A stretch of DNA of 64,000 nt, taken from assembly GCA_943372485.1 (NCBI GenBank), contig CALRYW010000007.1, positions 4,936 through 68,935 of the forward strand, given 5' to 3'. Shown in pieces: positions 14,456-56,037 of the stretch. The stretch is from Bosea thiooxidans (lineage in GTDB: Bacteria; Pseudomonadota; Alphaproteobacteria; Rhizobiales; Beijerinckiaceae). Positions within the stretch are counted from its first letter, which is position 1, and each line of letters starts with the position of its first letter. The notes under the pieces were generated by a model, which saw nothing but the letters and a program-made list of their open reading frames with translations, ran no database searches and was not told the origin of the DNA. Both the position numbers and the translations under genes were made by a program.

Positions 14456-14484
14456 TTGCCAAGCGCGGGGAGAGCGGCTATTTC
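14456..14484 (+). promoter_or_regulatory. Putative sigma70 promoter of tRNA-Arg
   Basis: TTGCCA-N17-TATTTC, ~40 nt upstream of the tRNA. Confidence 0.45.
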
Positions 14485-14525
14485 GGCCCCCATCGAAGCC
14501 GCGGCGGCACGCCGCGATCCGATAC

Positions 14526-14602: not shown

Positions 14603-14629
14603 CTTCGGTACAGATCTGCGAACTCCCTG

Positions 14630-14976
14630 CACGTTGGCCGGGCAGCACCGACGATGTTGCAGGACCGACGTTCCGACAGGCTCATGACGGTCTGCAGATG
14701 CGCGACGGCCCTACTATTTTTTGATAGAAGCTCCCGCATCGCCGCCACGTCCAGCATCTGCTCAGCCAGCAGCTTCTTCAGCTTGCCGTTCTCGTCCTCG
14801 AGCTGCTTAAGGCGCTTGGCTTCGGACACGTCCATCCCGCCGAACTTGGCCTTCCAGTTGTAAAGGGTCGCCTCGGAGACACCGTGCTTGCGCGCCAGAT
14901 CGGCGGTCTTCGCACTGGCCCCATGCTCGCGCAAAATCGCGATGATCTGCTCTTGCGTGAACCGTGTCCGCTTCAT
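14630..14976 (-). pseudogene. IS3 transposase orfA/orfB remnant
   Basis: Complete orfA HTH runs directly into a short orfB fragment and then into the tRNA antisense; the ORF-track 341-aa product is a read-through artefact. Confidence 0.8.
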
Positions 14977-15039
14977 CTGTCCGTCCTTGAAAAGGCCGGA
15001 CTCTAAATCTCCGTGGCGGAAAATCGCAGTGGCAGGTCA
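14630..15039 (-). mobile_element. Truncated IS3-family element (left IR + orfA + first codons of orfB)
   Basis: Left end reads TGACCTGCCACTGCGATTTTCCGCCACGGAGATTTAGAGTCCGG on the minus strand; orfA MKRTRFTQEQIIAIL...HGVSEATLYNWKAKFGGMDVSEAKRLKQLEDEN; A6 slippery site; then AVAHLQTVMSLSERRSC. No DDE domain or right IR. Left boundary approximate. Confidence 0.88.
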
Positions 15040-15069
15040 GGCGCTGTCGATATCGGCGACCTTTAGGTT

Positions 15070-16692: not shown

Positions 16693-16704
16693 GGCGGCAG
16701 GCCC

Positions 16705-17553
16705 TTACGCCGCAAACCAGTTGCGCGGCGGCAGCGACTGCACGACCGGGCCGGGAACCGCCATGTCCATCCGGCCGACGACCTGACCGTGGGCGATCTT
16801 GGCCGGCTTGTCATGGACCGGCAGCAGGAATTTCCCGACCGAGAGCAGCTTCTTGATGGCCGCCTTTTCCTCGCGCTTGGAGACGCCGTGATTGCCGGTG
16901 GTGCGCGGCTCGTTGGCGCTGATCTCGTGGAAGGGCGTGACGATCTGGTCGTTGAAGTCGTAGATCACGTCGCCGCAGATGATGGCGCGCCCCTCGATCG
17001 TGTCGACATGGACATTCATCGAGCCCTCGGTATGGGCGCCGGCCGCTTCCAGATAGCAGCCGGGGAAGAGCTCGATCATCCCGGACAGCTCCAGATCCTC
17101 GAAGCGAAGTGCGTCGCGCGTGTGCAGCCGGTCGATCAGATGCTTGATGTCGGGCGCCGGATACTGCGGATGCATCAGCCCGGAGACGGAGTATTCCAGC
17201 TCACGCCGGTTGACGATCACCGTCGTGTTCATCGGGAAGAGCTCGTCCTTCCCGGCATGATCGATATGGAGATGGGTGTGCATCACGTAGCGCACATCGC
17301 CCATCCGCACGCCGTATTTGGCGAGCTGGTTCTCGATCATGTTCTCGTGGAACTGGAGGCCGCGCATGCCGAGCGTCTCCATGATCTGGTTGTGCCGGTA
17401 GCCGGTGTCGACGACGACTGGCCAGGGGCCGCCGAGGATCAGGAAGCCATAGGTCGGCACGCGCCGCGTGCGGCCGCAGTCGCGGCCGAGGACCAGGAAG
17501 CTCGATTCCAGCTCGATGTCGCCATAGTCGAGGATCTTGATTTCGAGCGCCAT
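16705..17553 (-). CDS. Metallo-beta-lactamase-fold hydrolase, AHL-lactonase (AiiA/AttM)-like family
   Basis: VVVDTG, HTHLHIDHAG (HxHxDH), GAHTEGS, GDVIY, PVHD. Confidence 0.88.
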   Translation of the reverse strand: MALEIKILDYGDIELESSFLVLGRDCGRTRRVPTYGFLILGGPWPVVVDTGYRHNQIMETLGMRGLQFHENMIENQLAKYGVRMGDVRYVMHTHLHIDHAGKDELFPMNTTVIVNRRELEYSVSGLMHPQYPAPDIKHLIDRLHTRDALRFEDLELSGMIELFPGCYLEAAGAHTEGSMNVHVDTIEGRAIICGDVIYDFNDQIVTPFHEISANEPRTTGNHGVSKREEKAAIKKLLSVGKFLLPVHDKPAKIAHGQVVGRMDMAVPGPVVQSLPPRNWFAA

Positions 17554-17565
17554 GGAGGTTCTCCG

Positions 17566-18450
17566 TCAGGGCTGGGCGAGGCGGTAGACCCGCCGCGCGG
17601 TTTGGCTGAAGACAGCGTCCACCGCGCCTTCAGGCACGGCGGCGCGATGGGCGCCGATCAGCTCGGGATAGCTCGTCCAGAGCTTCTCGATCGGGAAGTT
17701 GGAGCCGAACAGACAGCGCTCGGCCCCGAACAGCGCGAGCGTGTCCGTCACGACGAAGGTGATCTGCGCGGGATCGTTGCGGCGCTGGAACGTGCCGAGT
17801 CCCGAGAGCTTGCTGACGATGTTGGGCTGGTCGGCGAGCGACCGCATCCCTTCCCGCCAGTGCGCGATGCCGCCCGTCGACAGGTCCTCCAGCATGCCGG
17901 CGTGCTGGAGCACGAAGGTCACCTCGGGACAGGCCGCGGCGAGTTCAGCCGCGCCCGCCATCTGCGGGGCGAAGACCTGCAGGTCGAAGCTGAAGCCGTA
18001 ACCGGCCAGCCGGCCGATATTGGCCTGCAAGAGCGGGTCGCGGCAGAGATCGGCGCCGCCTGCGAAGCGATAGAGCGGGTTCGCGTGCCAGTGCAGCTGC
18101 ATGCGCACGCCGCGCACCCGCGGGTTCTGCGCCAGCGCGTCGAGCTGCGGCCGGACGTCTTCTGCGAGCATGTCGGCATAGGCGACGATGGCGATTGGGA
18201 AGCCGGAGTCGTCGGAGGCCTGCGAGACGAAGGCGACCTCGTCGAGATGGCGCGCCGGCGCCCAATTCGCCTGGACATAGACGGCCTGCGTCACGCCGCA
18301 GGGGCGGCACTCCGCCAGGTACTCCGCAACCGGATAGTCGCGCCGGATCGGCTCATAGGGGCCGAAGATGCGCGGTTGCATCGGGCCCAGCAGCCAGGGC
18401 AGATCGGCTTGGCGCCAGATATGGAAATGCGAGTCGATGATGCCGGTCAT
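17566..18450 (-). CDS. Amidohydrolase_2-family hydrolase (LigI / L-fuconolactonase-like)
   Basis: IDSHFHIW, VLQHAG, SKLSG, LFGSNFP. Confidence 0.85.
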   Translation of the reverse strand: MTGIIDSHFHIWRQADLPWLLGPMQPRIFGPYEPIRRDYPVAEYLAECRPCGVTQAVYVQANWAPARHLDEVAFVSQASDDSGFPIAIVAYADMLAEDVRPQLDALAQNPRVRGVRMQLHWHANPLYRFAGGADLCRDPLLQANIGRLAGYGFSFDLQVFAPQMAGAAELAAACPEVTFVLQHAGMLEDLSTGGIAHWREGMRSLADQPNIVSKLSGLGTFQRRNDPAQITFVVTDTLALFGAERCLFGSNFPIEKLWTSYPELIGAHRAAVPEGAVDAVFSQTARRVYRLAQP

Positions 18451-44141: not shown

Positions 44142-44220
44142 CGCTATGTCGGTATCAAACAACTGACCTAGCCTTTTCTCCGACCTGCAGGCAGGACGTC
44201 CCGGCGAACGTCGGTCCCGA

Positions 44221-44234
44221 TTGCGATTACGCAA
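44221..44234. promoter_or_regulatory. Crp/Fnr-type box TTGCG-N4-CGCAA, copy 1
   Basis: TTGCGATTACGCAA ~94 nt upstream of the TDT gene start; 44218-44239 is identical to 45773-45794. Confidence 0.75.
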
Positions 44235-44327
44235 TGCGATGACGCCTCCAGGCGTCATTCTCGCTCCGCCACGGTCGCCGGCCCTCGGGAGCGGCCACCG
44301 GCGGTGGACACGGCCGGGAGCGACGTC

Positions 44328-45311
44328 ATGACCACAGCCATCTCTGCCAGCGACCATCCAGCCGAACCACGCCTCCGTCATTTCCCGGTCAGCTTCTTCT
44401 CGATGGTGATGGGCCTGACCGGGCTTTCGATCGCGCTGGAGAAGGGAGCGAGCACGATCCATGCCCTGCAGGCCATCGGGCATGTCGTGCTGGCTCTTGC
44501 GGGGGGCCTGTTCGTCCTGCTCGCCTTGCTCTACGGCGCCAAGATGCTGCTCCACCCGCAGGCGGTCCGCGAGGAGTTCGCCCATCCGGTGCGCCTGCAC
44601 TTCGTTCCGACGATCGCGATCAGCCTGATCCTGCTCAGCATCGCCTCTCTGGAGTCCAGCCGCGATCTCGCGGCCGGGCTCCTGCTCGTCGGCGCACCGC
44701 TGCAACTGGCGCTGACCCTGCTGGTGCTCGACCGCTGGATCAACCGCGAGCATTTCCAGACGCCTCACCTCAATCCGGCTTGGTTCATCCCGATCGTCGG
44801 CAACATGCTGGTCCCGATCGCCGGGGTGAGCCTCGGCTATCGCGAAGCCTCCTGGCTGTTCTTTGCTGTCGGCATCGTGTTCTGGCTGCCGCTGTTTGCC
44901 ATCGTCCTGAACCGGATCGTGTTCCATCAGCCCTTGCCGGACCGGCTCAGGCCGACGCTCTTCATCCTGATCGCCCCACCGGCCGTCGGATGCCTCGCCT
45001 ATCTCAAGCTGGCCGGCGGGATCGACGCCTTCGCCCGCATCCTCTATTTCTTCGGGCTGTTCCTGACGCTGCTGCTGCTGACCCAGGTGCCCCGGCTGCG
45101 GCGCATCGCCTTCTACCTGTCCTGGTGGGCCTATTCCTTCCCACTGGCGGCGATCACCGTCGCGAGCTTTGCGATGGCGGAGCAGACCGGCGTTGCGGGC
45201 TATCGCCAGATCGCCTTCGTCCTGCTGGCCTTCACCAGCCTGCTCGTCGCCGGCCTGCTGCTGCGCACCGGCATCGCCGTCGCCCGGCGGCAGATCTGCC
45301 AGCCGGAATAG
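44328..45311 (+). CDS. TDT/SLAC1 (TehA/SSU1-like) anion channel or exporter
   Basis: PVSFFSMVMGLTGL, NPAWFIPIVGN, LFILIAPP, FYLSWWAYSFPLAA. Confidence 0.9.
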   Translation: MTTAISASDHPAEPRLRHFPVSFFSMVMGLTGLSIALEKGASTIHALQAIGHVVLALAGGLFVLLALLYGAKMLLHPQAVREEFAHPVRLHFVPTIAISLILLSIASLESSRDLAAGLLLVGAPLQLALTLLVLDRWINREHFQTPHLNPAWFIPIVGNMLVPIAGVSLGYREASWLFFAVGIVFWLPLFAIVLNRIVFHQPLPDRLRPTLFILIAPPAVGCLAYLKLAGGIDAFARILYFFGLFLTLLLLTQVPRLRRIAFYLSWWAYSFPLAAITVASFAMAEQTGVAGYRQIAFVLLAFTSLLVAGLLLRTGIAVARRQICQPE

Positions 45312-45319
45312 GTGGCGTC

Positions 45320-45751
45320 GTGCAGTCCGACCTGCGGCCCGCCCGCCCCCAGATCATCCATGCGCGCTACCCGGTCTTCATCCTCGACATTGCCAGGACG
45401 CAAACCGCCTGCCGAAACGTCGCCGAGATCGTGGCGCATTTTCGCCGGTTGATCGAGCGGCACCCCTGCGCCCGCTTTCTCGGCGTGTTCGACCACATGG
45501 CCCATACGCGCGCCCTGCCGGATGGCGAAATCGCCGAGGGAATCCTCGACGCCCAGAACGTCGTGTTCTGCTTCGGCATGTCGATCCCCAATCCGGAGAT
45601 CCTGGCGCTGCGACCCCGCTCGATCGGCATCGCGGAACTGGCGGACCGGTTCGTCGTCAGCTTCCTCGAAACCCCGATGCCCCTGGCGAACTCCGCCATG
45701 GAAACCTGGACGCAGGCCCTGCTCGTCTCTCCGCAGCCTGGCTCCGGCTAG
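45320..45751 (+). CDS. Conserved hypothetical protein, DUF6858-like
   Basis: GTG start; YPVFILDI...FDHMAHT...NVVFCFG...LALRPRSIGIAE...SFLETP; family recalled from memory. Confidence 0.65.
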   Translation: MQSDLRPARPQIIHARYPVFILDIARTQTACRNVAEIVAHFRRLIERHPCARFLGVFDHMAHTRALPDGEIAEGILDAQNVVFCFGMSIPNPEILALRPRSIGIAELADRFVVSFLETPMPLANSAMETWTQALLVSPQPGSG

Positions 45752-45775
45752 GAAAACGAGCGGCCCTGTTCGCGA

Positions 45776-45789
45776 TTGCGATTACGCAA
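45776..45789. promoter_or_regulatory. Crp/Fnr-type box TTGCG-N4-CGCAA, copy 2
   Basis: TTGCGATTACGCAA ~98 nt upstream of the cydA start. Confidence 0.75.
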
Positions 45790-45886
45790 TGCGACGGGGC
45801 CGCGATCGGTCTTTCGTATCGGGGCGACACACGCCGAGGCCGAACCAACTGGCCGAAGCGAGCCGCTCTCGAGGAGCCCTCCTTCC

Positions 45887-47479
45887 ATGATCGACCCGAC
45901 CTTCGTCGAGCTATCCCGGTGGCAGTTCGCCGCGGTGGCCATGTACCACTTCATTTTCGTTCCGCTGACACTGGGCCTGAGCTGGATCCTGGTGATCATG
46001 GAGTCGGTCTATGTGATGACCGGCAAGGAGATCTACCGCGACATGTCGCGGTTCTGGACCAAGCTCTTCGCGATCAACTTCGCGCTCGGCGTCACCACCG
46101 GCCTGACCATGGAATTTCAGTTCGGGATGAACTGGGCCTACTACTCGCATTACGTCGGCGACATCTTCGGCGCCCCGCTGGCGATCGAAGGTCTCATGGC
46201 CTTCTTCCTCGAATCGACCTTTGTCGGCCTGCTCCTGCTCGGGCGTGACCGCCTCAGCAAGCGGCGCTACCTCGCCGTCGTCTTTGCGACCGCGCTCGGT
46301 ACCAACCTGTCCGCGCTCTGGATCCTGGTCGCCAATGGCTGGATGCAGAACCCCGTCGGGGCCGAGTTCTCGGCCGAGACGATGCGCATGGAGATGACCG
46401 ACTTCGCCGCGGTGCTGTTCAACCCCGTGGCCCAGGTCAAGTTCATCCACACCGTCGCGGCCGGCTATGTCACGGCCTCGATGTTCGTGATCGGCATCTC
46501 GGCCTGGTACATCCTGAAGGGCCGCGACCTCGCCTTCGCCAAGCGCTCCTTCGCGGTGGCGGCCGGTTTTGGCCTGGCCTCCTCGCTGTCGGTGATCGTG
46601 CTCGGCGACGAGAGCGGCTACGAGCTCGGCGACGTGCAGAAGATGAAGCTCGCCGCGATCGAGGCCGAGTGGCACACGCAGCCGGCGCCGGCGAACTTCA
46701 ACCTCTTCGCCCTGCCGGACCAGGACAAACGCGAAAACCGCTACGAGGTGCAGATCCCCTGGGCGCTCGGCCTGATCGCGACGCGTTCGGTCGACAAGCA
46801 GGTTCCCGGCATCACGGAGCTGGTCGCGAAGAACGAGCAGCGCGTCCGTTCGGGTATCCTCGCCTATGGCGCGCTCGAGAAGCTTCGCGCGGGCGACAGC
46901 TCCGCCGAGACCAAGGCCGTCTTCAACGACCACAAGAAGGACCTCGGCTACGGGCTGATGCTGAAGCGCTATGTCGAGGATCCGGCGACCGCGACGGAGC
47001 AGCAGATCGCGACGACGGCCTGGGACAGCGTCCCGCATGTGCCCTATCTGTTCTGGAGCTTCCGGATCATGGTCGCCTTCGGCTTCACCATGCTCGGGCT
47101 GTTCGGCCTGTCCTTCTACCATCTCGCCCGCGGCACGATCGAACGGCAGCGCTGGCTCCTGCGCCTGCTGGTCTGGAGCATCCCGCTTCCCTGGCTCGCC
47201 AGCGAACTCGGCTGGTTCGTCGCCGAATATGGCCGCCAGCCCTGGGCGATCGGCGAGGTCCTGCCGACTTTCCTCGCCACATCGGCCCTGACGGTCACCG
47301 ATCTGATCGTGTCGATGAGCGTCTATCTCGTCTTCTACACGCTGCTGCTGGTCATCGAAGTCTATCTCATGGTCCGCTTCGTCCGGCTCGGCCCCAGCTC
47401 GCTGCATACGGGCCGCTATCACCACGAGCAGACCGATCCGCCCTCGCCCGTCCCGCCTCGCCTCGTCGCGGCCGAATGA
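45887..47479 (+). CDS. cydA: Cytochrome bd ubiquinol oxidase subunit I (long Q-loop type)
   Basis: LSRWQFA..MYHFIFVPLT, MEFQFG, QKMKLAAIE, AEYGRQPW; start trimmed to MIDPTF. Confidence 0.97.
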   Translation: MIDPTFVELSRWQFAAVAMYHFIFVPLTLGLSWILVIMESVYVMTGKEIYRDMSRFWTKLFAINFALGVTTGLTMEFQFGMNWAYYSHYVGDIFGAPLAIEGLMAFFLESTFVGLLLLGRDRLSKRRYLAVVFATALGTNLSALWILVANGWMQNPVGAEFSAETMRMEMTDFAAVLFNPVAQVKFIHTVAAGYVTASMFVIGISAWYILKGRDLAFAKRSFAVAAGFGLASSLSVIVLGDESGYELGDVQKMKLAAIEAEWHTQPAPANFNLFALPDQDKRENRYEVQIPWALGLIATRSVDKQVPGITELVAKNEQRVRSGILAYGALEKLRAGDSSAETKAVFNDHKKDLGYGLMLKRYVEDPATATEQQIATTAWDSVPHVPYLFWSFRIMVAFGFTMLGLFGLSFYHLARGTIERQRWLLRLLVWSIPLPWLASELGWFVAEYGRQPWAIGEVLPTFLATSALTVTDLIVSMSVYLVFYTLLLVIEVYLMVRFVRLGPSSLHTGRYHHEQTDPPSPVPPRLVAAE

Positions 47480-47507
47480 GCGCATTCCCCTTCCGAGGAG
47501 CAAGACG

Positions 47508-48659
47508 ATGCTCGACTATGAAAGCCTGAAACTGATCTGGTGGGTCCTTGTGGGCGCTCTGCTGATCGGCTTCGCCATCACCGACGGCATGGATATGGGC
47601 GTCGGCATGTTGCTGCCCTTCCTCGGCCGCAACGACAATGAACGGCGCGTCATCATCAACACGATCGGGCCGCACTGGGACGGCAACCAAGTCTGGCTGA
47701 TCACCGCCGGCGGCGCCATTTTCGCCGCCTGGCCGGCCGTCTACGCCGCTGCCTTCTCCGGTTTCTATCTGGCGATGCTGCTCGTCCTCGTCGCCCTGTT
47801 CTTTCGCCCGGTCGGCTTCGACTACCGCAGCAAGATCGACAATCCGACCTGGCGCAACGCCTGGGACTGGGGGCTGTTCGTGGGCGGGCTGATCCCGGCG
47901 CTGATCTTCGGCGTCGCCTTCGGCAATCTGCTGCAGGGCGTGCCCTTCCACCTCGATCGTTTCCTGAGGCCGCACTACGAAGGCTCCTTCATCTGGGCCC
48001 TGCTGCCGCTGCTCAACCCCTTCGCCCTGCTCGCCGGGCTAATCAGCGTCGGCATGCTGGCATTGCATGGCGCGATCTGGCTGCAGATGCGCACCGATGA
48101 CGTGGTGGCCGCACGGGCGCGGGCGCTGGTGCCGATGCTCGCCATCGGCGTCTCCGCCCTCTTCGCGCTGGGTGGATTGTGGGTCTGGCTCGGCATCGAT
48201 GGCTACCGGATCGTCTCCCAGCCGCCGCTGTCGGCCCTGCCCAACCCGCTCGCCAAGGAGGTGGTGCGTGCGTCTGGCGCCTGGTTCGACGTGTACCGCA
48301 ACTGGCCCGTCGCCCTCATCGTACCCCTGATCGGTCTCGTCGCGCCGCTTCTCGCCGCCGGCCTGTCGCGGCTGAACAGGCCCGGTCTCGGCTTCACCCT
48401 GAGTGGGTTCGGCCTGGCCGGGATCATCGGCACCGCCGGGCTGTCGCTGTTTCCCTTCATCATGCCGTCCAGCACGCACCCCTCCTCCAGCCTGACGATC
48501 TGGGACGCCGCCTCCAGCCACATGACCCTGAAGATCATGTTCTGGGCCGTGGTGATCCTGCTGCCGATCGTGCTCGCCTACACGGTCTGGGCCTATGTCC
48601 AGATGTGGGGAAAGGTCACCGTCGCCGACATCGAAGCGCGCAAGCACCAGGCCTACTGA
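47508..48659 (+). CDS. cydB: Cytochrome bd ubiquinol oxidase subunit II
   Basis: TDGMDMGVG, IGPHWDGNQVWL, FRPVGFDYR, SLTIWDAASS. Confidence 0.97.
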   Translation: MLDYESLKLIWWVLVGALLIGFAITDGMDMGVGMLLPFLGRNDNERRVIINTIGPHWDGNQVWLITAGGAIFAAWPAVYAAAFSGFYLAMLLVLVALFFRPVGFDYRSKIDNPTWRNAWDWGLFVGGLIPALIFGVAFGNLLQGVPFHLDRFLRPHYEGSFIWALLPLLNPFALLAGLISVGMLALHGAIWLQMRTDDVVAARARALVPMLAIGVSALFALGGLWVWLGIDGYRIVSQPPLSALPNPLAKEVVRASGAWFDVYRNWPVALIVPLIGLVAPLLAAGLSRLNRPGLGFTLSGFGLAGIIGTAGLSLFPFIMPSSTHPSSSLTIWDAASSHMTLKIMFWAVVILLPIVLAYTVWAYVQMWGKVTVADIEARKHQAY

Positions 48660-48676
48660 GCCGAAAGGAACCCGCC

Positions 48677-48877
48677 ATGTGGTATTTCGCCTGGATTCTC
48701 GGTGTCACGGCCGCCCTCGCCATCGCCGTCATCAACGTCATGTGGTTCGAATTCCAGAACGAATTCGAGACGCGCGACACCGCGCTGCTGGGCGCCGACG
48801 AGACGCGCGAGGGCGCGCCACAGGCCGTGGACTCCGCGCCGCGGCTTGTGGGGCCTACGGCAGCCAGCGGCCGCTGA
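48677..48877 (+). CDS. cydX: Cytochrome bd small subunit CydX with C-terminal extension
   Basis: MWYFAWILG signature; 66 aa; AAGGAA RBS-like site upstream. Confidence 0.88.
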   Translation: MWYFAWILGVTAALAIAVINVMWFEFQNEFETRDTALLGADETREGAPQAVDSAPRLVGPTAASGR

Positions 48878-48946
48878 CGGTCGCCGGTCGGTAGGCTTCG
48901 CGGATCGCGGCGCCGCGGCGAAGAGCATCAACCGAATGGCATCCTC

Positions 48947-50647
48947 GTGAGATCCTCCCCGAACGACCTCGCCTTTCTCCAGCGCCTGCGTCCCCTGGCG
49001 GCCCGCGAGCTGCGCCTCGCGCTCCTCGCCGGCGCGCTGGTGGGGGCGATGGTCGTGCTCCAGGCCTGGTGGGTCGCGGGCATCCTCGACCGGGCACTGG
49101 TCGGCCGGGAGCCGTTCGAGGTTCTGATCCTGCCCTTCGCCATCCTGCTCGGCATCGTGACGCTGCGCGCCGTCGCGGCCTTCGCCGCCGACCGGTTCGG
49201 CTTTGCCGCCGCGATGCGGGTGGTGCCGGCGCTGCGCCGCGCCCTGCTCGGCAAGCTCGGCCGGGTCGGGCCATCGGGGGCCGCGGCGCTCCCGCCGGGT
49301 GAGATCGTCTCGGCGCTGTCGGATGGCGTGCGCGCCGTCGAGCCCTTCTTCTCGCGCTACCTGCCGGCGACCGCGCAGGCGGCGATGCTGCCCACCGGCA
49401 TCCTTCTCGTCGTGGCGCCGCTGGATTGGCTGTCGGCGCTCGTCTTCCTGGTCACCGCCCCGCTGATCCCGCTGTTCATGGTCCTGATCGGCAAGGGCGC
49501 CGAAGCGCTCAACCAACGGCAATGGCTGCGGCTGCAGCGCATGTCCGGCCATTTCCTCGACGCGGTGCAGGGCCTCGCCACCATCAAGGCCTTCGGAGCC
49601 GGGGCCCGGATGGTCACCGAGGTCGGCGCCACGGCCGAGCGCTACCGGCGCGACACGATGGCGGTGCTGCGGATCGCCTTTCTGTCGTCGCTGACGCTCG
49701 AATTCTTTTCGACGGTCGCGATCGCGATCATTGCCGTTTTGATCGGCTTCCGGCTGCTCTGGGGCGACCTCGACTATCGCACCGGCCTGTTCATCCTGCT
49801 GCTGGCGCCGGAATTCTATGGTCCGCTGCGGACGATGGGCACCGCCTATCATGCCCGCATGGAGGCGCTGGGGGCCGCGTCCCGGCTGGTCGCGCTCGAC
49901 GCCCTGCCGGAGCCGGTGGTCGCCGGGGGAATGCTCAGGCCCGCATTCGGCAGGGGCGTCGCGATCCGTTTCGAGGATGTTCACCTGACCTATGACGACG
50001 GCCGCATGGCGCTGCAGGGCGTCAGTTTTGCGATCGAGCCCGGAGAGGCCGTCGCCTTTGCGGGACCCTCCGGCGCCGGCAAATCCAGCATCCAGGCCCT
50101 GTTGCTCGGCTTCGTCAGCCCGACCAGCGGCCGCATCCTGATCGACGGCCATCCGCTCGACAGGCTCGATCCGGCGCATTGGCGCCGCCATCTCGGTTTC
50201 ATGCCGCAACGGCCAAAGCTCTTCGCCACTTCGGTGCGCGGCAATATCGCGCCGGGCGAGGCCGATCCGGATGACAGCGCCATCCTCGGGGCCGCCGCAC
50301 ATGCGGGCGTCGCCGGGGTGATCGCCAGACTGCCGCAGGGGTTCGACACGGCGATCGGCAATGGCGGGCGCCAGTTGTCGGGCGGTCAGGAGAGCCGCAT
50401 CGCCCTGGCGCGCCTCTTCTACCGGGATGCGCCGCTCGTCCTGCTGGACGAACCGACCGCCCATCTCGACGATGACAGCGAAGCCCTGATCCACGCGGCC
50501 ATCGCGCAGCTGAAGGGGCAGCGGACCCTTCTGGTCAATGCGCACCGGCCGGCGAGCCTCGCACTGGCCGACAGGATCATCCGGGTCGAGGCGGGTCGCG
50601 TCGCGGTTGGAGAGGCCGAGCCTGCGGAGGCGGCCAGCCCATGCTAA
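48947..50647 (+). CDS. cydD: Thiol/heme ABC exporter subunit CydD
   Basis: PFFSRYLP, TAPLIPLFMVLIG, LLLAPEFYGPLR, GPSGAGKS, LSGGQ. Confidence 0.93.
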   Translation: MRSSPNDLAFLQRLRPLAARELRLALLAGALVGAMVVLQAWWVAGILDRALVGREPFEVLILPFAILLGIVTLRAVAAFAADRFGFAAAMRVVPALRRALLGKLGRVGPSGAAALPPGEIVSALSDGVRAVEPFFSRYLPATAQAAMLPTGILLVVAPLDWLSALVFLVTAPLIPLFMVLIGKGAEALNQRQWLRLQRMSGHFLDAVQGLATIKAFGAGARMVTEVGATAERYRRDTMAVLRIAFLSSLTLEFFSTVAIAIIAVLIGFRLLWGDLDYRTGLFILLLAPEFYGPLRTMGTAYHARMEALGAASRLVALDALPEPVVAGGMLRPAFGRGVAIRFEDVHLTYDDGRMALQGVSFAIEPGEAVAFAGPSGAGKSSIQALLLGFVSPTSGRILIDGHPLDRLDPAHWRRHLGFMPQRPKLFATSVRGNIAPGEADPDDSAILGAAAHAGVAGVIARLPQGFDTAIGNGGRQLSGGQESRIALARLFYRDAPLVLLDEPTAHLDDDSEALIHAAIAQLKGQRTLLVNAHRPASLALADRIIRVEAGRVAVGEAEPAEAASPC

Positions 50648-52305
50648 CGCTGGGCAGGATCGGGCCGCTGCTGCGGCCGCTGGCCGGCTGGATCGCGCTG
50701 GCCATCGGCCTCGCTGCGCTGGCGATGCTGGCCAATATCGCGCTGCTGGCCCTATCGGGCTGGTTCATCACCGCCATGGCCATGGCCGGGCTGGCGGGCG
50801 TCTCGATGAACTATTTCACACCGGGCGCCACGATCCGCGCATTGGCGATGACGCGCACCGCGGGCCGCTATGCCGAGCGCGTGGTCGGTCATGAGGCGAC
50901 ACTGCGCGTCGTGGCGACGTTGCGACCCTGGCTGTTCGAGCGGCTGCTGCCGCTCGCACCGGCGGCCCTCGCCGATCTGCGTGACGGTGACCTGCTGTCG
51001 CGGCTGCGGGGCGATGTCGACCGGCTCGAACTGGTGGTGCTGCGCGTCGTCGCGCCCATTGCCGTCGCCGGCATCGTTTTGGCGGTCGGCCTCGGCTGGC
51101 TCGCCGTCGCCCATGCGGCCATTGCCGCTGTCGTGGCCCCGCTGCTGGCGGTGGGAGGGCTCCTGGTGCCGCTGGCGGCCCAGCGCTACGGCGCCGGTGC
51201 CGCCGCGCGGCTGGCGGAAGGCCAGGCACGGCTCGCCGCGACGCTGGTCGATCACGTCGAGGGTTTGGCGGAACTCACGATCTACGACCCGCAGGAGCGG
51301 CATGTCGCGCGGCTGCTGGCGGAGAGTGACACGATTCTGGGCGACGAGATCCGGCTGGCGAACGCGACCGCCTTCGCCGGCGCGATGGTCGGCTTCTGCG
51401 CCCATCTCGCTCTGGTCGCGGCGATGGCCACGGCGATCGCGGGTTTCGCCGCGGGCGCGCTGACGGCCCCGCAGGTGCCCATGCTCGCCTTGTTATCGCT
51501 CGCCCTGTTCGAGGCGGTGGCGCCGCTGCCGCTCGCCGTTCAATCCCTCCCGGCGGTTCGGGCGTCGATGCAGCGCCTGGCGGCGGTGACCGAGCGCGAG
51601 CCTCCCGTGTCGGAACCGGCCGCGCCGATCGCGCCGCCGGCTTCCGGCGTCTTGCGCTTCGAGCGGGTCGGCCTGCGCTATCCCGGCACCGAGGATTTCG
51701 CCCTGAGGGATATCGACCTCGCGCTTGCGCCCGGCCTGATGCTCGGGGTCGCCGGCCCGAGCGGAGCCGGCAAGTCCAGTCTCATAGCCCTGGCCATGCG
51801 GTTCGTGCCGGAGAGCGAAGGGCGCATCACCTTCGCCGGCACGGCGCTCTCGGCCTTCGACGGCGATGCCTGGCGCCAGCGTATCGCGCTGCTGCCGCAG
51901 GATGCTCCTCTTCTCGCCGCGACCATCCGCGCCAATCTGCAACTCGCCGCGCCCGATGCGGGCGAGGCCGAGATGAAGGCCGCCTGCGAGCTGGCCGGCA
52001 TCATGCCCTTCGTGCTGCAGCAGCCTGCCGGGCTGGACACCTTCGTCGGCGCCCATGGCACGAAGGTCTCCGGAGGCGAGGCCCGGCGGATCGCGCTGGC
52101 GCGGGCCCTGCTCAAACCTGCGCCGATCCTGATTCTGGACGAACCGACCGAAGGGCTGGAACAGCAGGCGGCCATGGCCCTGTTGCAGCGCCTGCGCCGC
52201 GTGCGCGCCATGCAGGCGATCCTCGTCATCAGCCATGACGAGGCCGTCCTGAGCGCCTGCGATACGACGCTGCGTCTTGTCGCAGGACGCATGCTTGCGC
52301 ACTGA
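50641..52305 (+). CDS. cydC: Thiol/heme ABC exporter subunit CydC
   Basis: LLALSGWFIT, RTAGRYAERVVGHEATLR, GDLLSRL..DVD, VSGGEARR. Confidence 0.93.
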   Translation: MLTLGRIGPLLRPLAGWIALAIGLAALAMLANIALLALSGWFITAMAMAGLAGVSMNYFTPGATIRALAMTRTAGRYAERVVGHEATLRVVATLRPWLFERLLPLAPAALADLRDGDLLSRLRGDVDRLELVVLRVVAPIAVAGIVLAVGLGWLAVAHAAIAAVVAPLLAVGGLLVPLAAQRYGAGAAARLAEGQARLAATLVDHVEGLAELTIYDPQERHVARLLAESDTILGDEIRLANATAFAGAMVGFCAHLALVAAMATAIAGFAAGALTAPQVPMLALLSLALFEAVAPLPLAVQSLPAVRASMQRLAAVTEREPPVSEPAAPIAPPASGVLRFERVGLRYPGTEDFALRDIDLALAPGLMLGVAGPSGAGKSSLIALAMRFVPESEGRITFAGTALSAFDGDAWRQRIALLPQDAPLLAATIRANLQLAAPDAGEAEMKAACELAGIMPFVLQQPAGLDTFVGAHGTKVSGGEARRIALARALLKPAPILILDEPTEGLEQQAAMALLQRLRRVRAMQAILVISHDEAVLSACDTTLRLVAGRMLAH

Positions 52306-53057
52306 TGGGCGCTCGGGACAATGCTGTCGGCAATCGGCGCGGGAGACGGTGGGTGAAGCGAGTCGGCGCGACGGAAGCCTGGACCGGCACGGCTGATTGT
52401 CGCCTCTGCGCGATCCGCGGCTCAGTGCTGTTCGCCGGCCTGAAGGAGGACGATTTCGAGCGGTTCCACCGGCCCATCGACCAGTCCGTTTATGGAGCCG
52501 GCGCCACCATCTACGCCATGGGTGACCCCGCGACATCGCTGTTCACGATCCGCTCCGGCCTGGTCAAGCTCACGCAGTTCCTGCCGGACGGCACGCAGCG
52601 CATCGTGCGGCTCCTGCGCAGCACCGACCTGATCGGGCTTGAGGCGCTGATCGACAGCGAATACCCGCACACCGCCACCGCGCTTCAGCCGACCGAGATC
52701 TGCCGTCTGCCGGTGGAGTTCGTGCGGTCGCTCTCCCACAGCAATGCCCAGCTCTTCAACGAGCTGATGGCGCGCTGGCACAAGGCCCTGAGCAATGCAG
52801 ACCGCTGGATCACCGAATTCTCGACCGGCTCGTCGCGGGACCGGGTCGTGCGTCTCCTGCTCTGGCTCGCGGAGGCGCGCGGCGACGAGCGCTGCGAGTT
52901 GTTCAGCCGCGAGGACCTCGGTGCGGTGCTGGGACTGACCACAGAGACCGCGAGCCGGACGATGGCGGAGCTGAAGCGGCAGGGCTTCATCTCGGAACCG
53001 CGCGTGAACCAGTTCCTGTGCGACATGCCCAGCCTACGCCGGCTGCTCGACGCCTGA
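52305..53057 (+). CDS. Crp/Fnr-family regulator with N-terminal CxxC
   Basis: CRLC, cNMP-like domain (IRSGLVKL, DLIGLE), HTH SREDLGAVLGLTTETASRTM. Confidence 0.9.
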   Translation: MGARDNAVGNRRGRRWVKRVGATEAWTGTADCRLCAIRGSVLFAGLKEDDFERFHRPIDQSVYGAGATIYAMGDPATSLFTIRSGLVKLTQFLPDGTQRIVRLLRSTDLIGLEALIDSEYPHTATALQPTEICRLPVEFVRSLSHSNAQLFNELMARWHKALSNADRWITEFSTGSSRDRVVRLLLWLAEARGDERCELFSREDLGAVLGLTTETASRTMAELKRQGFISEPRVNQFLCDMPSLRRLLDA

Positions 53058-53065
53058 CCGACGTC

Positions 53066-53085
53066 GCTTCGACCAAAGTCGAAGC
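53066..53085 (+). terminator. Stem-loop after the Crp/Fnr gene
   Basis: GCTTCGAC-CAAA-GTCGAAGC; no U-tract. Confidence 0.35.
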
Positions 53086-53112
53086 CCGCCGGACCGGGCC
53101 GCCGACAGCCTA

Positions 53113-53126
53113 TTGCGAATTGTCAT
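53113..53126. promoter_or_regulatory. Degenerate Crp/Fnr-type box upstream of the SQR gene
   Basis: TTGCG-AATT-GTCAT ~98 nt upstream of the ATG at 53225, matching the spacing of copies 1 and 2. Confidence 0.45.
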
Positions 53127-53224
53127 TTCGACCGCGGCTCCACAGGCGCAGGAAGCGCGGGCGGGATGGATTCGAACCGGCCCGCCAATCGCTCCAGAAC
53201 GGGAAGCGGATTCGGGAGGGCCCC

Positions 53225-54547
53225 ATGGCATCATCGACGGAACGGGATCTGACGCGCCGCAGCGCTCTGAGGCTGGCGCTCGCCGGCGCCGCTGCCGCCG
53301 GGTGGGCGCGCCCCGGGGAAGCGGCGGCCAAGGTCGCGACGAAGGCCCGCATCGTGATCGCAGGCGCGGGCGCCGCGGGCTTGGCCGCCGCATCTCGGCT
53401 CACCCAGCGGCTCGACGGCGCGCAGATCACGATCATCGACGCGCGCCGCGCCCATTTCTATCAGCCCGGCTTCACGCTGATCGCCGCCGGGCTCAAGCCG
53501 AAGAGCTACGCGATCGGGGCCACACGTGACTATGTCGCGCCCGGGGCGACCCTCGTGGAGGACCGGGTGGTCGCCTTCGATCCCGAGTCGAACGTCGTCG
53601 TGACCGCTGGCGGCCAGCGCTTCGCCTATGACTTTCTGATCGTCGCCACCGGACTCCAGCTCGACTATGCCGCGATCGAGGGCATGGACACGCGGCTGAT
53701 CGGCATCGACGGCATCGGGTCGGTCTATGGCGGCCCCGACGCCGCCGAGGCGACCTGGGGGGAGCTGGCGCGCTTCGTCGAACGCGGTGGCGTGGGCCTG
53801 TTCCACCGTCCCGAGACCGAGATGAAATGCGCGGGTGCACCGCTGAAATACGCCTTCATCGCCGATGATCGGCTGCGCCGCGCGCGGACACGCCGCAAGG
53901 CGGAGCTGATCTATGCTGCCCAGAACAAGGCGCTCTTCAGTGTCCCGATCGTCTCGGAGAAGGTGCGCATGTTGTTCGAGCAGCGGCAGATTCGGATGGC
54001 CCATGACCATGTCATGACGGCGATCGATCCGGTGCGGCGCATCGCCACCTTCAAGACCCCGCAGGGCCGCACCGAGATCGGCTATGATTTCGTCAACGTC
54101 ATCCCGCCGATGCGCGCGCCCGATCCGGTGCGATCCAGCGCCCTGGCCTGGCAGAGCGGGATCTTCGCCGCCGATGGCTGGATGGAGGTCGATCCCGCGA
54201 CGTTGCGCCACCGGCGCTTCGCCAACGTCTTCGGCATCGGCGATGTCGCGGGCGTGCCCAAGGGAAAGACTGCCGCAAGCGTCAAATGGCAGGTGCCCGT
54301 GGCGGTTGACCATCTGGTGGCGAGCCTCCAGGGCCGCGTCTCCGAGGCCGCCTATAACGGCTACACCTCCTGCCCGCTGATCACCCGGATCGGCCGGGCG
54401 ATGCTGGTCGAGTTCGACTACGAGAACAACCTGACCCCATCCTTCCCGGGCGTGATCGCACCGCTGGAGGAGCTCTGGGTGTCCTGGGTGATGAAGGACA
54501 TCGCCCTCAAGCCGACCTATCTCGCCATGCTCCGCGGCCAGGCTTGA
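53225..54547 (+). CDS. sqr: Tat-exported sulfide:quinone oxidoreductase-family flavoprotein
   Basis: LTRRSAL twin-arginine signal; IAGAGAAG FAD motif, HFYQPG, MKCAGAPLK, GIGDVAG, YNGYTSCPL. Confidence 0.8.
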   Translation: MASSTERDLTRRSALRLALAGAAAAGWARPGEAAAKVATKARIVIAGAGAAGLAAASRLTQRLDGAQITIIDARRAHFYQPGFTLIAAGLKPKSYAIGATRDYVAPGATLVEDRVVAFDPESNVVVTAGGQRFAYDFLIVATGLQLDYAAIEGMDTRLIGIDGIGSVYGGPDAAEATWGELARFVERGGVGLFHRPETEMKCAGAPLKYAFIADDRLRRARTRRKAELIYAAQNKALFSVPIVSEKVRMLFEQRQIRMAHDHVMTAIDPVRRIATFKTPQGRTEIGYDFVNVIPPMRAPDPVRSSALAWQSGIFAADGWMEVDPATLRHRRFANVFGIGDVAGVPKGKTAASVKWQVPVAVDHLVASLQGRVSEAAYNGYTSCPLITRIGRAMLVEFDYENNLTPSFPGVIAPLEELWVSWVMKDIALKPTYLAMLRGQA

Positions 54548-54571: not shown

Positions 54572-54937
54572 ATGCAACAGATCGACCCCATGGTATTTGT
54601 AGCGGTCTTCCAGGAGATGCTCGGCTTCGCCTTCTGGCCGCTCGTCGGATTCATCCTGCTCATGCTCTTCGCGGTGGCCGGCATCGTGATCCGCGACGGC
54701 CGGATCTCGCCCCGTCGTCTGGTCTACGCCCAGGTGCTCGGCGCCTTGGGCGGCGTCCTCGCTGTCTGGGCCATGCTCTGGTTCACCAGTTCGCGCGCCA
54801 CCGATCTCCTTGGCGGCCCGATCGACTGGCTGCTGACGCTCGCCATCGCCGCCGCCGGCGTGATCGGCGGAGCGATGATCGTCTATGTCGCGCTCTCCTT
54901 CGGCCCCACCTCCGCGCGCCGCAGTCCGGCCCCCTGA
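54572..54937 (+). CDS. Small membrane protein, DUF5368-like
   Basis: Three TM helices; FVAVFQEM, GGPIDW; directly after the SQR gene. Confidence 0.7.
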   Translation: MQQIDPMVFVAVFQEMLGFAFWPLVGFILLMLFAVAGIVIRDGRISPRRLVYAQVLGALGGVLAVWAMLWFTSSRATDLLGGPIDWLLTLAIAAAGVIGGAMIVYVALSFGPTSARRSPAP

Positions 54938-54976: not shown

Positions 54977-55558
54977 ATGAAGCATCTTCTCGCGATCCTG
55001 CCTCTGCTGTGTGCCGCTCCCGGCCCGTCCCTGGCCGCGCCAGAACCCGCCGATCCCGCGCGACGCACGCCCTGGGGCCTCTATGTCGATTCCCGCGAGG
55101 CCTTCGCGATGAAGCAGGCACAGGGCGACAAGATCCTGCTCGTCGATGTGCGCGATCCCGTCGAGATCATGTTCACCGGCTTCGCCCCCGCCGTCGATGT
55201 CGTCGTACCGTTCATGATTGCCAACCGGGCGAAGTGGAACGAGCAGCGTTCGGTCTACCAGGTGGAGAAGAACCCGCGCTTCGAGGCTGATCTCGCCAAG
55301 GCGCTGGCCGCGCGCGGCCTGTCCAAGGACACGCCGATCCTGCTGATGTGCCGCTCCGGCGGCGAACGCGGCGCGCCCTCCGCCCAGGAGCTCTGGGGCA
55401 AGGGCTATGGCAAGGTTTATGTCGTCACCGACGGTTTCGAAGGCGACACGGTCAAGGACGGTGAGCGCAGGAACTGGCGCCTTGTCGACGGGTGGAAGAA
55501 TTCCGGGCTGCCCTGGAGCTATCGCCTCGACAGATCGAAATTCCCGCTCGGCGAATAA
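54977..55558 (+). CDS. Exported rhodanese-like sulfurtransferase
   Basis: Signal peptide; LLVDVRDP, LMCRSGGER active-site loop, DGFEGD, GWKNSGLPW. Confidence 0.88.
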   Translation: MKHLLAILPLLCAAPGPSLAAPEPADPARRTPWGLYVDSREAFAMKQAQGDKILLVDVRDPVEIMFTGFAPAVDVVVPFMIANRAKWNEQRSVYQVEKNPRFEADLAKALAARGLSKDTPILLMCRSGGERGAPSAQELWGKGYGKVYVVTDGFEGDTVKDGERRNWRLVDGWKNSGLPWSYRLDRSKFPLGE

Positions 55559-55596
55559 GGGCCGGGCAACACTCCTCCCAGCACAAGGTCGACACC

Positions 55597-56037
55597 ATGC
55601 AGGTCCGTTCGCTCGCGTTTCTCGCCGCGCTCTCCGTCTCCGCCCTGACGGCTCTGCCCGCCATGGCGGCCGGCCAAAAGCTTCTTGCCCTCCTCAGCAG
55701 CGGCGATGCCGAGGCTCAGGCCTTCTCGCTCATCCTCGCCAACGAAGCCCGCGGCGCCGGCCACGCGGTCGATCTCGTGCTCTGCGGCCCGGCCGGCGAC
55801 ATCGCCCTCAAATCCGCGCCCGCAGCCGCCACGCGTCCGGTCACCCCCACCGGCATGAGCGTGCGCGCCCTGCTCGAAAAGCTCGTCAGCCAGGGCGGCA
55901 AGGTCGAGCTCTGTGCGATCTACCTACCCAACCGGCAACTCAAGCCGGACGCCGTCATCGAAGGGGTTTCGGTCGGCAAGCCGGCCGATGTGGCCGCCCG
56001 CATGGCCGATCCGGCCGTTAAGGTGGTCAGCCCCTGA
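55597..56037 (+). CDS. Exported DsrE/DsrF-like protein
   Basis: Signal peptide MQVRSLAFLAALSVSA; LVLCGPAG and VELCAIYL Cys motifs. Confidence 0.75.
   Translation: MQVRSLAFLAALSVSALTALPAMAAGQKLLALLSSGDAEAQAFSLILANEARGAGHAVDLVLCGPAGDIALKSAPAAATRPVTPTGMSVRALLEKLVSQGGKVELCAIYLPNRQLKPDAVIEGVSVGKPADVAARMADPAVKVVSP

Follow-up and report, generated by a model that had tools for sequence, protein, structure and literature searches.

A window of 64,000 nucleotides from Bosea thiooxidans (contig CALRYW010000007.1; coordinates below are those of this whole stretch) carries on its forward strand a run of genes for an anion transporter, a cytochrome bd oxidase, a Crp/Fnr-type regulator and a sulfide:quinone oxidoreductase. 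The run begins with a TDT/SLAC1/TehA-family anion transporter gene (44328..45311; Pfam SLAC1 4e-63, with the NCBIfam TehA/tdt matches below cut-off) and a gene for a DUF6858 protein (45320..45751; Pfam 3e-53, and synteny). Across the loci compared, DUF6858 is always paired with TDT or leads cydA; its AF2 model (pLDDT 70) matches nothing in the PDB at E ≤ 0.001, PsbP/DcrB-like folds coming closest with a TM of about 0.46, and no paper mentioning the family was found in the literature. These genes are followed by cydA (45887..47479; Pfam 1.6e-169), cydB (47508..48659; Pfam 3e-106), a 66-aa cydX with the N-terminus MWYFAWILG (48677..48877; Pfam YbgT_YccB 1.3e-12) and the ABC transporter genes cydD (48947..50647) and cydC (50641..52305), both assigned by domain search and synteny. 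Beyond the regulator gene lie sqr, encoding a type II sulfide:quinone oxidoreductase with a Tat leader (53225..54547; PDB 6oi5/6mo6 at 1e-62), and genes for a DUF5368 membrane protein (54572..54937; Pfam 1.9e-29), an exported rhodanese-domain protein (54977..55558; Pfam 7e-7) and an exported DsrE-like protein (55492..56037). The Pfam DsrE match of the latter, 1e-4, is right at the cut-off, and its true start lies inside the open reading frame, near MQVRSL. DUF5368 is a conserved partner of SQR, being found 3′ of it in two further loci as well (L032 and L087). The SLAC1/TDT, cydA, Crp/Fnr regulator and sqr assignments made in a preliminary description of this DNA are all confirmed.

The FNR-like regulator, hereafter REG, is placed at 52353..53057. 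Its longest open reading frame runs from an ATG at 52305, and the start is probably the GTG at 52353, given a GGGAGA 6 nt upstream and homologues of 233-234 aa. The TGATG coupling to cydC that had been proposed therefore becomes doubtful at the translational level, while co-transcription of the two genes is still likely. Cys32, Cys35 and Cys133 of REG are invariant among its orthologues and align with C20, C23 and C122 of FNR, so that REG retains all but one of the four cluster ligands of FNR; the position of FNR C29 is Val in 25/25 orthologues, which leaves REG without the four-cysteine set of FNR. The recognition helix reads TTETASR and is nearly invariant, and no co-variation between helix and box is visible. 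REG falls below the cut-offs of the family models for Fnr (65.8 against 228 bits), FnrL (63.4 against 300) and FixK (64 against 300), its closest structural and sequence relative being FNR itself (PDB 5cvr/5e44, E = 3e-16). Orthologues are 50-96% identical to REG, and the paralogues encoded in the same genome 33% at most; the Crp/Fnr paralogues of the Bosea genome include a FixK-like (C58), an FnrN-like (C24) and a pair of NnrR-like proteins (C22/C148), the last two sharing 24-25% identity with REG. Judged on its sequence, REG is a member of a distinct, unnamed FNR-like subfamily of Crp/Fnr regulators that is neither FNR, FixK nor NnrR. About 950 database members belong to it, all with merely generic annotations, and a literature search turned up no account of such a cyd-linked regulator in Alphaproteobacteria.

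Two 22-bp boxes and a degenerate third site

The identical 22-mer noticed previously (CGATTGCGATTACGCAATGCGA) occurs at exactly 44218..44239 and 45773..45794. The first copy, candidate operator 1 (core TTGCGATTACGCAA at 44221-44234), is centred 100.5 nt from the TDT start codon, and candidate operator 2 (core 45776-45789) 104.5 nt from that of cydA. The sequence TTGCG-ATTA-CGCAA is thus present twice, with the inverted 5-bp half-sites, 4-bp spacer and footprint of about 22 bp expected of a Crp/Fnr-type site, and the identity between the two copies ends sharply at 22 nt, a dimer-sized stretch. From the end of the 14-bp core to the start codon, the distance is 94 nt for TDT, 98 nt for cydA and 99 nt for sqr, in agreement with the 94-98 nt first estimated. 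It also holds that none of the three spacers contains a canonical TTGAT-N4-ATCAA, even the nearest matches having no fewer than three mismatches. The label "non-canonical" is better dropped: TTGCG-N4-CGCAA fits the FixK2 consensus TTG(A/C)-N6-(T/G)CAA of Bradyrhizobium diazoefficiens, in the form in which PMC6710368 quotes it from Bonnet et al. 2013.

In the 4.5 Mb Bosea assembly the 22-mer has these two copies only, with no further one even at 4 mismatches, and 0/100 shuffles yielded two matches. This rules out a dispersed genomic repeat, the outcome that the preliminary description had held to be fatal to its proposal. The bare TTGCG-N4-CGCAA is no commoner in the genome than base composition predicts (5 found, about 4.6 expected), and within the window the count of the 14-bp box at 1 mismatch is at chance level. 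A matrix trained solely on non-Bosea sites places operators 1 and 2 at ranks 1 and 2 of the genome, with 27.3 bits against 19.8 for the next match. The other three perfect boxes of the genome (C5:27483, C94:13938 and C101:13202) and the next matrix matches, C68:14706 in a DoxX/VOC spacer and C22:47416 before an HlyD/ABC operon, have the look of chance occurrences or of sites of other regulators.

The third site, TTGCGAATTGTCAT at 53113-53126, lies in a conserved block, ATTGnnAnTTnnCATTTCG (53111..53131), and is centred 105.5 nt from the sqr start codon; its 3 mismatches are all in the right half. With the same non-Bosea matrix it scores 14.1 bits and ranks about 39th genome-wide, that is, within the genomic background. 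Yet the surrounding block is the best-conserved part of the REG-sqr spacer in three genera, and the Rhabdaerophilum orthologue (L027), TTGCGAATTCGCAT, reaches 20.7 bits, better than the Bosea site. In L087, moreover, sqr-DUF5368 is located within the boxed TDT operon. Of the three-promoter regulon originally envisaged, the TDT and cydA boxes stand as probable operators, and the sqr box, which scores as background, as no more than a plausible one.

Conservation of the box and its association with REG

The box accompanies REG across Bosea, Rhabdaerophilum, Breoghania, Xanthobacter, Filomicrobium, Rhodomicrobium-like genomes and a Sedimenticola, always upstream of REG or of the first gene of a TDT-DUF6858, cydABX-DC or sqr set. 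Its position tracks operon order. It precedes TDT in six loci (L024, L025, L027, L032, L086 and L087, Rhabdaerophilum among them), DUF6858 in Breoghania, and cydA where this gene comes first, as in Xanthobacter (L033, L037, L039) and Sedimenticola (L047), and also in L090. In six other loci with no cyd genes nearby (L044, L045, L057, L063-L065) the box lies about 70-80 nt upstream of the REG gene. Throughout about 400 kb of related loci, 12/12 perfect boxes lie beside REG or the genes of its cluster, against an expectation of about 0.4 for all of that sequence, and the box tracks REG in about 19/21 cluster loci. In 20 orthologous sites columns T7, T8, G9, C18 and A19 never vary; conservation extends to positions 5 and 10 (G/C) and to the A/TG flanks, beyond what the FixK2 consensus specifies.

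In held-out loci the matrix scores at the expected promoters were 27.3 bits (L086), 31.1 and 29.0 bits (L087, which has the same cluster genes in a different order) and 26.0 bits (L090), and the held-out Rhodomicrobium-like genomes have a box of 24-26 bits about 80 nt upstream of the REG gene. In two Rhodomicrobium-like genomes a genome-wide scan with the bare box was barely above control (15 vs 12 and 21 vs 13); the sites that stand out are just those with the right flanks, located before REG and before a Rieske gene. As a negative control, five cydAB loci of Bosea that lack REG show TTGATCCAGATCAA or TTGATCGAAGTCAA, both of TTGAT type, or no box. No box was found in the orthologue loci L038/L060 (Rhodobium-like), L040, L046, L058 and L022, at the stand-alone regulators L085, L088 and L089, or at the 50%-identity relatives L066/L067. 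In a Devosia locus (L041) a perfect box lies between convergent gene ends, which counts against the operator reading. Motif searching upstream of orthologous clusters, suggested at the outset, thus returns boxes at cluster promoters across genera and in held-out loci, and the view that the boxes are Crp/Fnr-type sites tied to the local regulator is upheld by cross-genus footprinting, the genome matrix scan, the held-out loci and the negative control.

Binding, mode of regulation and signal

The reading that we prefer, at a probability of roughly three in four, is that the boxes are operators of REG, which would control TDT-DUF6858 and cydABX-DC-REG and probably the sqr operon. Each 22-mer would contain an 18-bp operator, A-TTGCG-N4-CGCAA-TG, and a REG dimer would sit on one operator before TDT-DUF6858 and on another before cydABX-DC-REG, thereby controlling its own gene along with those of the anion transporter, the bd-type quinol oxidase and the assembly transporter of that oxidase. 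REG lies at the end of the boxed cydABX-DC operon and therefore would regulate itself, as had been supposed. The sqr-DUF5368-rhodanese-DsrE operon would probably join the regulon through its weaker, degenerate site. REG, operator and target genes appear to travel together as a patchily distributed unit, and a box unlike the TTGAT boxes of other Bosea cydAB loci would partially insulate this unit from the resident FNR/FixK network. Observed directly are the sites, the fact that they are unique in the genome, their conservation and their occurrence together with REG; what we infer is REG binding, the direction of its effect and its signal.

A different binder is conceivable. The boxes might be bound chiefly by a resident Crp/Fnr regulator, FixK-like, FnrN-like or NnrR-like, with REG a passenger or acting elsewhere. 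Cross-binding by these paralogues is possible, since the box fits the FixK2 consensus and resembles those that precede NnrR-dependent genes (PMC6710368) and since all three kinds of paralogue are encoded in the Bosea genome; in addition, the orthologous boxes include hybrids in which a half-site is FNR-like (TTGACGTAACGCAA and TTGCGTTATATCAA, for example). A chiefly resident binder is nonetheless improbable, as the type of box goes with REG and not with cydAB, the REG-less Bosea cydAB loci having TTGAT boxes, and as box and REG occur together even in the gammaproteobacterium L047 and before REG genes that have no cyd genes nearby. The conservation of positions 5 and 10 and of the flanks also exceeds what FixK2 would call for, and nirK has no match above cut-off in the Bosea genome. 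It is more improbable still that the 22-mer serves mainly as a hairpin in RNA or DNA, be it a terminator between genes, a stem-loop that stabilises RNA or a REP-like element, rather than as a protein operator. Both copies do lie downstream of a stop codon, and copy 2 forms the tip of a long hairpin (45757..45808; -36 kcal/mol, z = -5.0) that starts 6 nt past the DUF6858 stop, is followed by the U-rich UCUUUCGUAU and looks like a terminator of the TDT-DUF6858 transcript. L024 keeps this hairpin (z = -4.35); L025 (z = -1.39) and other genera lack the extended stem. What is conserved across genera is the sequence and not the pairing: covariation scores 0.082, where shuffles average 0.077 and 243/500 of them reach the observed score, and the half-sites hold 14 pair-breaking cells against 1 double change. 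The 22-mer has two copies in the whole genome, and in most lineages the box stands before the first cluster gene, with nothing upstream to terminate. The absent covariation rules out an RNA hairpin as the sole explanation of the box; in this Bosea strain, a dual role of copy 2, at the RNA level as well as as an operator, is possible. A further structure, the perfect 9+9 inverted repeat ATGACGCCT-CC-AGGCGTCAT (44239..44258; z = -2.3), separates operator 1 from the -10-like CATTCT. L024 has it almost unchanged and L025 in part, Breoghania shows a similar TGAC..GTCA, and the repeat might serve as another operator or act at the RNA level.

If REG is the binder, the sign of its effect is the next matter. 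The boxes are intergenic, 100-105 nt from the start codons, and in most lineages a weak -10-like hexamer follows 22-23 nt past the box. The end of the box coincides with the place that a -35 element would take, a position that is only a weak match, and a promoter scan found no sigma-70 consensus promoter. This geometry fits class II activation, with the box at the -35 position, and would fit occlusion of the -35 element equally well. It is possible, though we give it the lesser share of belief, that REG binds as a repressor by such occlusion, that the signal relieves the repression and that REG, encoded in the operon, exerts negative feedback. Both CydR of Azotobacter vinelandii, the best-known of the cyd-linked FNR homologues (in the account of PMC2885672), and CydE of Alishewanella, which is co-transcribed with cydAB (PMC6096048), are repressors. 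The weak -35 and the lack of a consensus promoter suggest activator dependence instead. FNR-family sites at class II-like spacing also act in activation in most cases. Class II activation by REG is therefore slightly favoured over repression.

As to the signal, REG would respond through a Cys-ligated site, which by default would be read as sensing low oxygen or the redox state, with sulfide as an attractive alternative. On a bolder and rather doubtful reading, the REG subfamily would be a sensor of sulfide or persulfide (or of NO or cyanide) and not of O2, its three invariant cysteines forming a modified Fe-S site or serving as a thiol switch, and would turn on a horizontally mobile module for "poison-proof respiration". 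The module would be self-contained, combining a bd oxidase that resists inhibitors with SQR, DUF6858 and an exporter of anions, and a private operator would insulate it from the host FNR/FixK network. What speaks for this idea is gene context, namely SQR-DUF5368 within the boxed TDT operon of L087, a box before an FNT channel gene in Filomicrobium, the BigR-Blh-TauE neighbours of REG in Rhodomicrobium, and rhodanese and cyanase genes nearby in L086; no assignment among formate, nitrite and hydrosulfide was reached for the FNT channel. Were it true, REG would be the first sulfide sensor of the Crp/Fnr family and would add a new sensing chemistry to the FNR fold. For the preferred reading of REG as the local regulator, the gain is that an unnamed subfamily of about 950 members acquires a predicted operator and regulon, with promoters that can be tested, and that DUF6858, DUF5368 and a TehA-like transporter are predicted to be tied functionally to cytochrome bd and sulfide:quinone oxidoreductase. 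It would also provide a clean case of regulator, operator and targets moving as a unit among Hyphomicrobiales and into a gammaproteobacterium. Experimental access is given by cultured carriers, namely Bosea sp. Leaf344, Xanthobacter autotrophicus, Breoghania corrubedonensis and Rhodomicrobium udaipurense.

Comparison with known regulators

In Bradyrhizobium diazoefficiens, NnrR-dependent boxes precede norE (TTGCGTCGGCGCAA), nnrR (TTGCGCTATCGCAA) and hemN2 (TTGCGCGAGCGCAA) (PMC6710368), and the resemblance of TTGCG half-sites to NnrR boxes that had been noted is real, in that such half-sites occur at these promoters. The likeness to NnrR promoters of rhizobia and Rhodobacter extends to the 5-4-5 palindrome with TTGCG/CGCAA half-sites, to similar distances from the start codon and to a Crp/Fnr-family dimer regulator with a box before its own gene. 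Unlike NnrR, REG has conserved cysteines that align with the FNR cluster ligands, its predicted targets are TDT, DUF6858, cydABX-DC and sqr and not nir/nor, and, apart from its low identity to the NnrR-like paralogues, it has E and not H in the recognition helix (TTETASR vs TLHTVSR, the latter being what we take as an NnrR marker). A difference of the NnrR group at a helix position has been described (PMC2908626). In its TTGC-GATTAC-GCAA form the window box satisfies the FixK2 consensus and is a Crp/Fnr-family site, and FixK2 boxes typically lie in class II position; unlike FixK, REG scores far below the family cut-off and has an invariant N-terminal CxxC plus a central Cys.

Terminal oxidases, cydAB included, are among the targets of FNR-type proteins. 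With FNR of E. coli and Aliivibrio fischeri (PDB 5cvr/5e44) and with FnrL/FnrN, REG shares the E-x-x-S-R helix and the three aligned cysteines; it differs from FNR in having Val for C29, in a box of TTGCG-N4-CGCAA and not TTGAT-N4-ATCAA, and in a predicted regulon that is small and local, not global. CydR of Azotobacter vinelandii is, as summarised in PMC2885672 from Wu et al. 2000, an Fnr homologue that represses cydAB and has wider targets such as flhDC. Going by that summary, it is like REG as an FNR homologue acting on cydAB through palindromic promoter boxes; REG, by contrast, is encoded by the last gene of cydABX-DC and probably belongs to a different subfamily. Finally, CydE of Alishewanella sp. 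WH16-1 is a GbsR-type repressor in a system where the bd oxidase is linked to sulfide/sulfate resistance (PMC6096048). It offers the parallel of a dedicated regulator co-transcribed with cydAB and having two operator sites, reached with another protein family and other operators than those of REG.

The paired putative operator and its surroundings

The 22-mer CGATTGCGATTACGCAATGCGA, built around the core TTGCG-ATTA-CGCAA, occurs twice in the window, at 44218-44239 before the gene of a SLAC1/TehA-family (TDT) transporter and at 45773-45794 before cydA, in agreement with the preliminary description. Identity between the two copies stops abruptly at 22 nt, a length close to what a Crp/Fnr dimer covers. 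The possibility raised in that description, that the 22-mer is a dispersed genomic repeat, is countered by the 4.5 Mb assembly, which holds these two copies and no third, even with up to four mismatches allowed. As the bare 14-bp pattern is not enriched genome-wide (5 copies vs. ~4.6 expected from base composition), the case for an operator rests on local pairing and comparative evidence. The degenerate third site, TTGCGAATTGTCAT, is indeed present at 53113-53126 before sqr, its three mismatches to the core all falling in the right half. Measured from box centre to start codon, the distance is 100.5 nt for the TDT gene, 104.5 nt for cydA and 105.5 nt for sqr. None of the three spacers contains an FNR-type TTGAT-N4-ATCAA site with fewer than three mismatches, in line with the lack of a canonical site noted in that description.

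The TDT gene follows DctM (ending at 44141) and precedes a DUF6858 gene (45320-45751), cydA, cydB, cydX (48677-48877), cydD, cydC and the Crp/Fnr-family regulator gene REG (52353-53057, forward strand). Next come the gene for a type II SQR exported by the Tat pathway (matching mitochondrial SQR at E = 1e-62), a DUF5368 gene and the genes for an exported rhodanese and a DsrE-like protein. The long CydX (66 aa, starting MWYFAWILG; Pfam YbgT_YccB, 1.3e-12) is concealed within a longer spurious ORF of the ORF list. The DUF6858 protein carries the invariant motifs FDH.AHT and ALRPRSIGI, and its AF2 model has no significant fold match in the PDB; its gene is always found with TDT and/or immediately before cydA. 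Since no convincing terminator was found between cydA and REG, REG is probably the final gene of the cyd operon. In addition, a perfect 9+9 inverted repeat, ATGACGCCT-CC-AGGCGTCAT (44239-44258), lies between the TDT operator and a -10-like hexamer; it is nearly kept in other Bosea, Breoghania has a TGAC..GTCA motif at the same place, and it could be the site of a second regulator.

The regulator and its probable box across genomes

The nearest relative of REG is FNR (Aliivibrio FNR, E = 3e-16), although its scores of 66 for Fnr (cut-off 228), 63 for FnrL (cut-off 300) and 64 for FixK (cut-off 300) fall far short of the curated thresholds. In 25 orthologues Cys32, Cys35 and Cys133, aligned with FNR C20, C23 and C122, are invariant, Val stands in every case at the position of FNR C29, and the recognition helix TTET(A/V)SR hardly varies. 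Orthologues across genera share 50-96% identity with REG, compared with at most 33% for the paralogues of the same genome (FixK-like, FnrN-like, FtrB and two near-duplicate NnrR-like copies). Database matches at E <= 1e-30 number about 950, all under generic names, and the subfamily is rare and patchy, being found in 12 of the 401 genomes sampled from the order and, besides the window's genome, in one of 24 sampled Bosea species. The proposed coupling of REG to cydC by way of an ATG at 52305, overlapping the stop of cydC, does not hold up well, because homologues of 233-234 aa and a GGGAGA Shine-Dalgarno sequence favour the GTG at 52353 as the probable start. The NnrR-like copies (C22:53941-54639 and C148:3997-4695, on separate contigs) are ~93% identical with the same HlyD/FtsX-type ABC neighbours, probably reflecting strain heterogeneity or an assembly duplicate; a box, TTGACGAAACGCAA, lies upstream of an HlyD-like gene (C22:47416).

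A scan of species-representative genomes yielded 24 loci encoding REG orthologues, including Bosea, Rhabdaerophilum, Breoghania, Xanthobacter, Rhodobium, Devosia, Filomicrobium, Rhodomicrobiaceae and one Sedimenticola, most of them with the cydABDC-REG arrangement. The motif search upstream of orthologous clusters that had been proposed bears out the local pattern: all 12 perfect boxes in these loci are intergenic and flank the cluster or REG, where ~0.4 would be expected anywhere in ~400 kb, and one-mismatch boxes elsewhere occur at background rate. The extended consensus is A-TTGCG-N4-CGCAA-TG. Box position tracks operon structure: it precedes cydA where cydA leads (Xanthobacter, Sedimenticola), the DUF6858 gene in Breoghania, without a second box before cydA, the TDT gene in Rhabdaerophilum and locus L032, and REG itself, by ~70-80 nt, in L044, L045 and L057, where cyd genes are not adjacent. 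The search yielded no box for the Rhodobium-like loci, for L040, L046, L058 and L022, for three stand-alone regulators or for the 50%-identity relatives. In a Devosia MAG (L041, 11011) the perfect box TTGCGGATCCGCAA lies between the convergent 3' ends of the regulator and an aminotransferase gene, where a promoter would not lie; the same locus has a weaker TTGCGGCTGGTCAA ~70 nt ahead of the regulator gene. Five Bosea cydAB loci from a different lineage, which lack REG, serve as a negative control: they carry TTGATCCAGATCAA, TTGATCGAAGTCAA or no box at all, and the TTGCG type is absent from every one.

When a matrix of 12 non-Bosea sites was scanned over the entire genome, the two window boxes ranked first and second (27.3 bits vs. 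19.8 for the next match). That third-best site, TTGCACTGACGCAA (C68:14706), lies in the divergent spacer of DoxX-like and VOC-family genes, ~100 nt from the DoxX start, and could be a chance match or an extra regulon member. Loci held out from the matrix behaved as the model predicted. L086 (TDT-DUF6858-REG) has a 27.3-bit box ~107 nt upstream of the TDT gene; in L090 a 26.0-bit box precedes cydA by 97 nt, and the TDT gene has a weaker one. L087 (GCA_963852045.1 contig, 5441-17636) reads TDT-DUF6858-SQR-DUF5368-REG-X-cydABX-DC, X being a 406-aa unknown, with a box at the start of each of its two operons (31.1 and 29.0 bits); such conserved content in shuffled order argues for functional coupling. 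In Rhodomicrobium-like genomes REG is preceded by a 24-26 bit box, and one of these genomes has a second box (28.9 bits) 150 nt ahead of a gene encoding a stand-alone Rieske subunit; in L044 and L045 this gene is divergent from REG. This Rieske Fe-S subunit gene (L065 17226-17967; L044 1205-2297; L045 6062-7148) lies outside any petABC operon, and its box suggests that the regulator swaps a bc1 subunit in these lineages. In Filomicrobium (L056, 6784-9318) and L058, a FocA-like FNT channel and a cytochrome P450 follow the regulator, with a 29.6-bit box between regulator and channel in L056; candidate substrates are formate, nitrite and hydrosulfide.

The second box also forms the tip of a long hairpin (45757-45808, -36 kcal/mol, z = -5.0), which starts 6 nt past the DUF6858 stop and is followed by a U-rich stretch, and which probably also acts much like a terminator on the TDT-DUF6858 transcript. 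Across 20 orthologous sites, however, the half-sites are conserved as sequence, while the covariation score equals the shuffled mean, with 14 cells breaking the pairing and only one double change, which argues for recognition by a dimeric protein. The hairpin, kept in L024 and not in L025, is a lineage-specific addition rather than the cause of box conservation, and may be a combined terminator and operator.

Promoter geometry and direction of control

A weak -10-like hexamer (CATTCT, CATGAG, CACTCT, TAAAGT, TTGAAT) starts 22-23 nt past the box in most lineages, and the bases adjoining the downstream half-site (AATGAC or AATGCG) coincide with the expected -35 position. This geometry would fit a class II site centred near -41.5 and, equally, occlusion of the -35. 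The promoter scan found no consensus sigma-70 promoter, which leans towards activator dependence, but CydR, the FNR homologue controlling cydAB in Azotobacter (PMC2885672), and CydE, co-transcribed with cydAB in Alishewanella (PMC6096048), are both repressors. Of the earlier proposal that REG activates three promoters and itself, predicted control of the TDT and cydA promoters and autoregulation are supported, the third promoter is plausible, and activation has a probability of ~55%.

The sqr site scores 14.1 bits, at about rank 39 genome-wide, and is thus within background. Nevertheless, ATTGnnAnTTnnCATTTCG is the best-conserved block between REG and sqr when Bosea, Rhabdaerophilum and L032 are compared, the Rhabdaerophilum orthologue TTGCGAATTCGCAT reaches 20.7 bits in a genome carrying all three sites (TDT 24.1, cydA 19.1), and SQR-DUF5368 lies within the boxed TDT operon of L087, which together make membership of sqr in the regulon plausible, with the balance slightly in its favour. 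The window's third site may be a weak one, or a FixK/FNR-type protein may share it.

Possible signal and relation to known Crp/Fnr systems

The predicted regulon comprises genes for respiration and the handling of sulfide (bd oxidase, SQR, TDT, DUF6858, DUF5368), to which other lineages would add the Rieske subunit or the FNT channel. Because three conserved Cys align with FNR ligands, an Fe-S or thiol switch is suggested. Read conservatively, the signal would be low oxygen or redox state; sulfide is a serious alternative, given the recurrent sulfur context of these loci: SQR, rhodanese and DsrE in the window, BigR-Blh-TauE adjoining REG in Rhodomicrobium, the FNT channel after the box in Filomicrobium, and rhodanese and cyanase near L086.

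The suggested resemblance to NnrR boxes is well founded, as TTGCG-N4-CGCAA precedes NnrR-dependent genes in B. diazoefficiens, and the window box also satisfies the FixK2 consensus TTG(A/C)-N6-(T/G)CAA (PMC6710368). Given these precedents, the type of motif was already known, and there may be cross-talk with regulators resident in the genome. Related, non-identical sites have been described for uncharacterised alphaproteobacterial Crp/Fnr groups by Dufour et al. (PMC2908626). What appears to be new is the predicted assignment of a private operator and a small portable regulon to a distinct, uncharacterised FNR-like subfamily.
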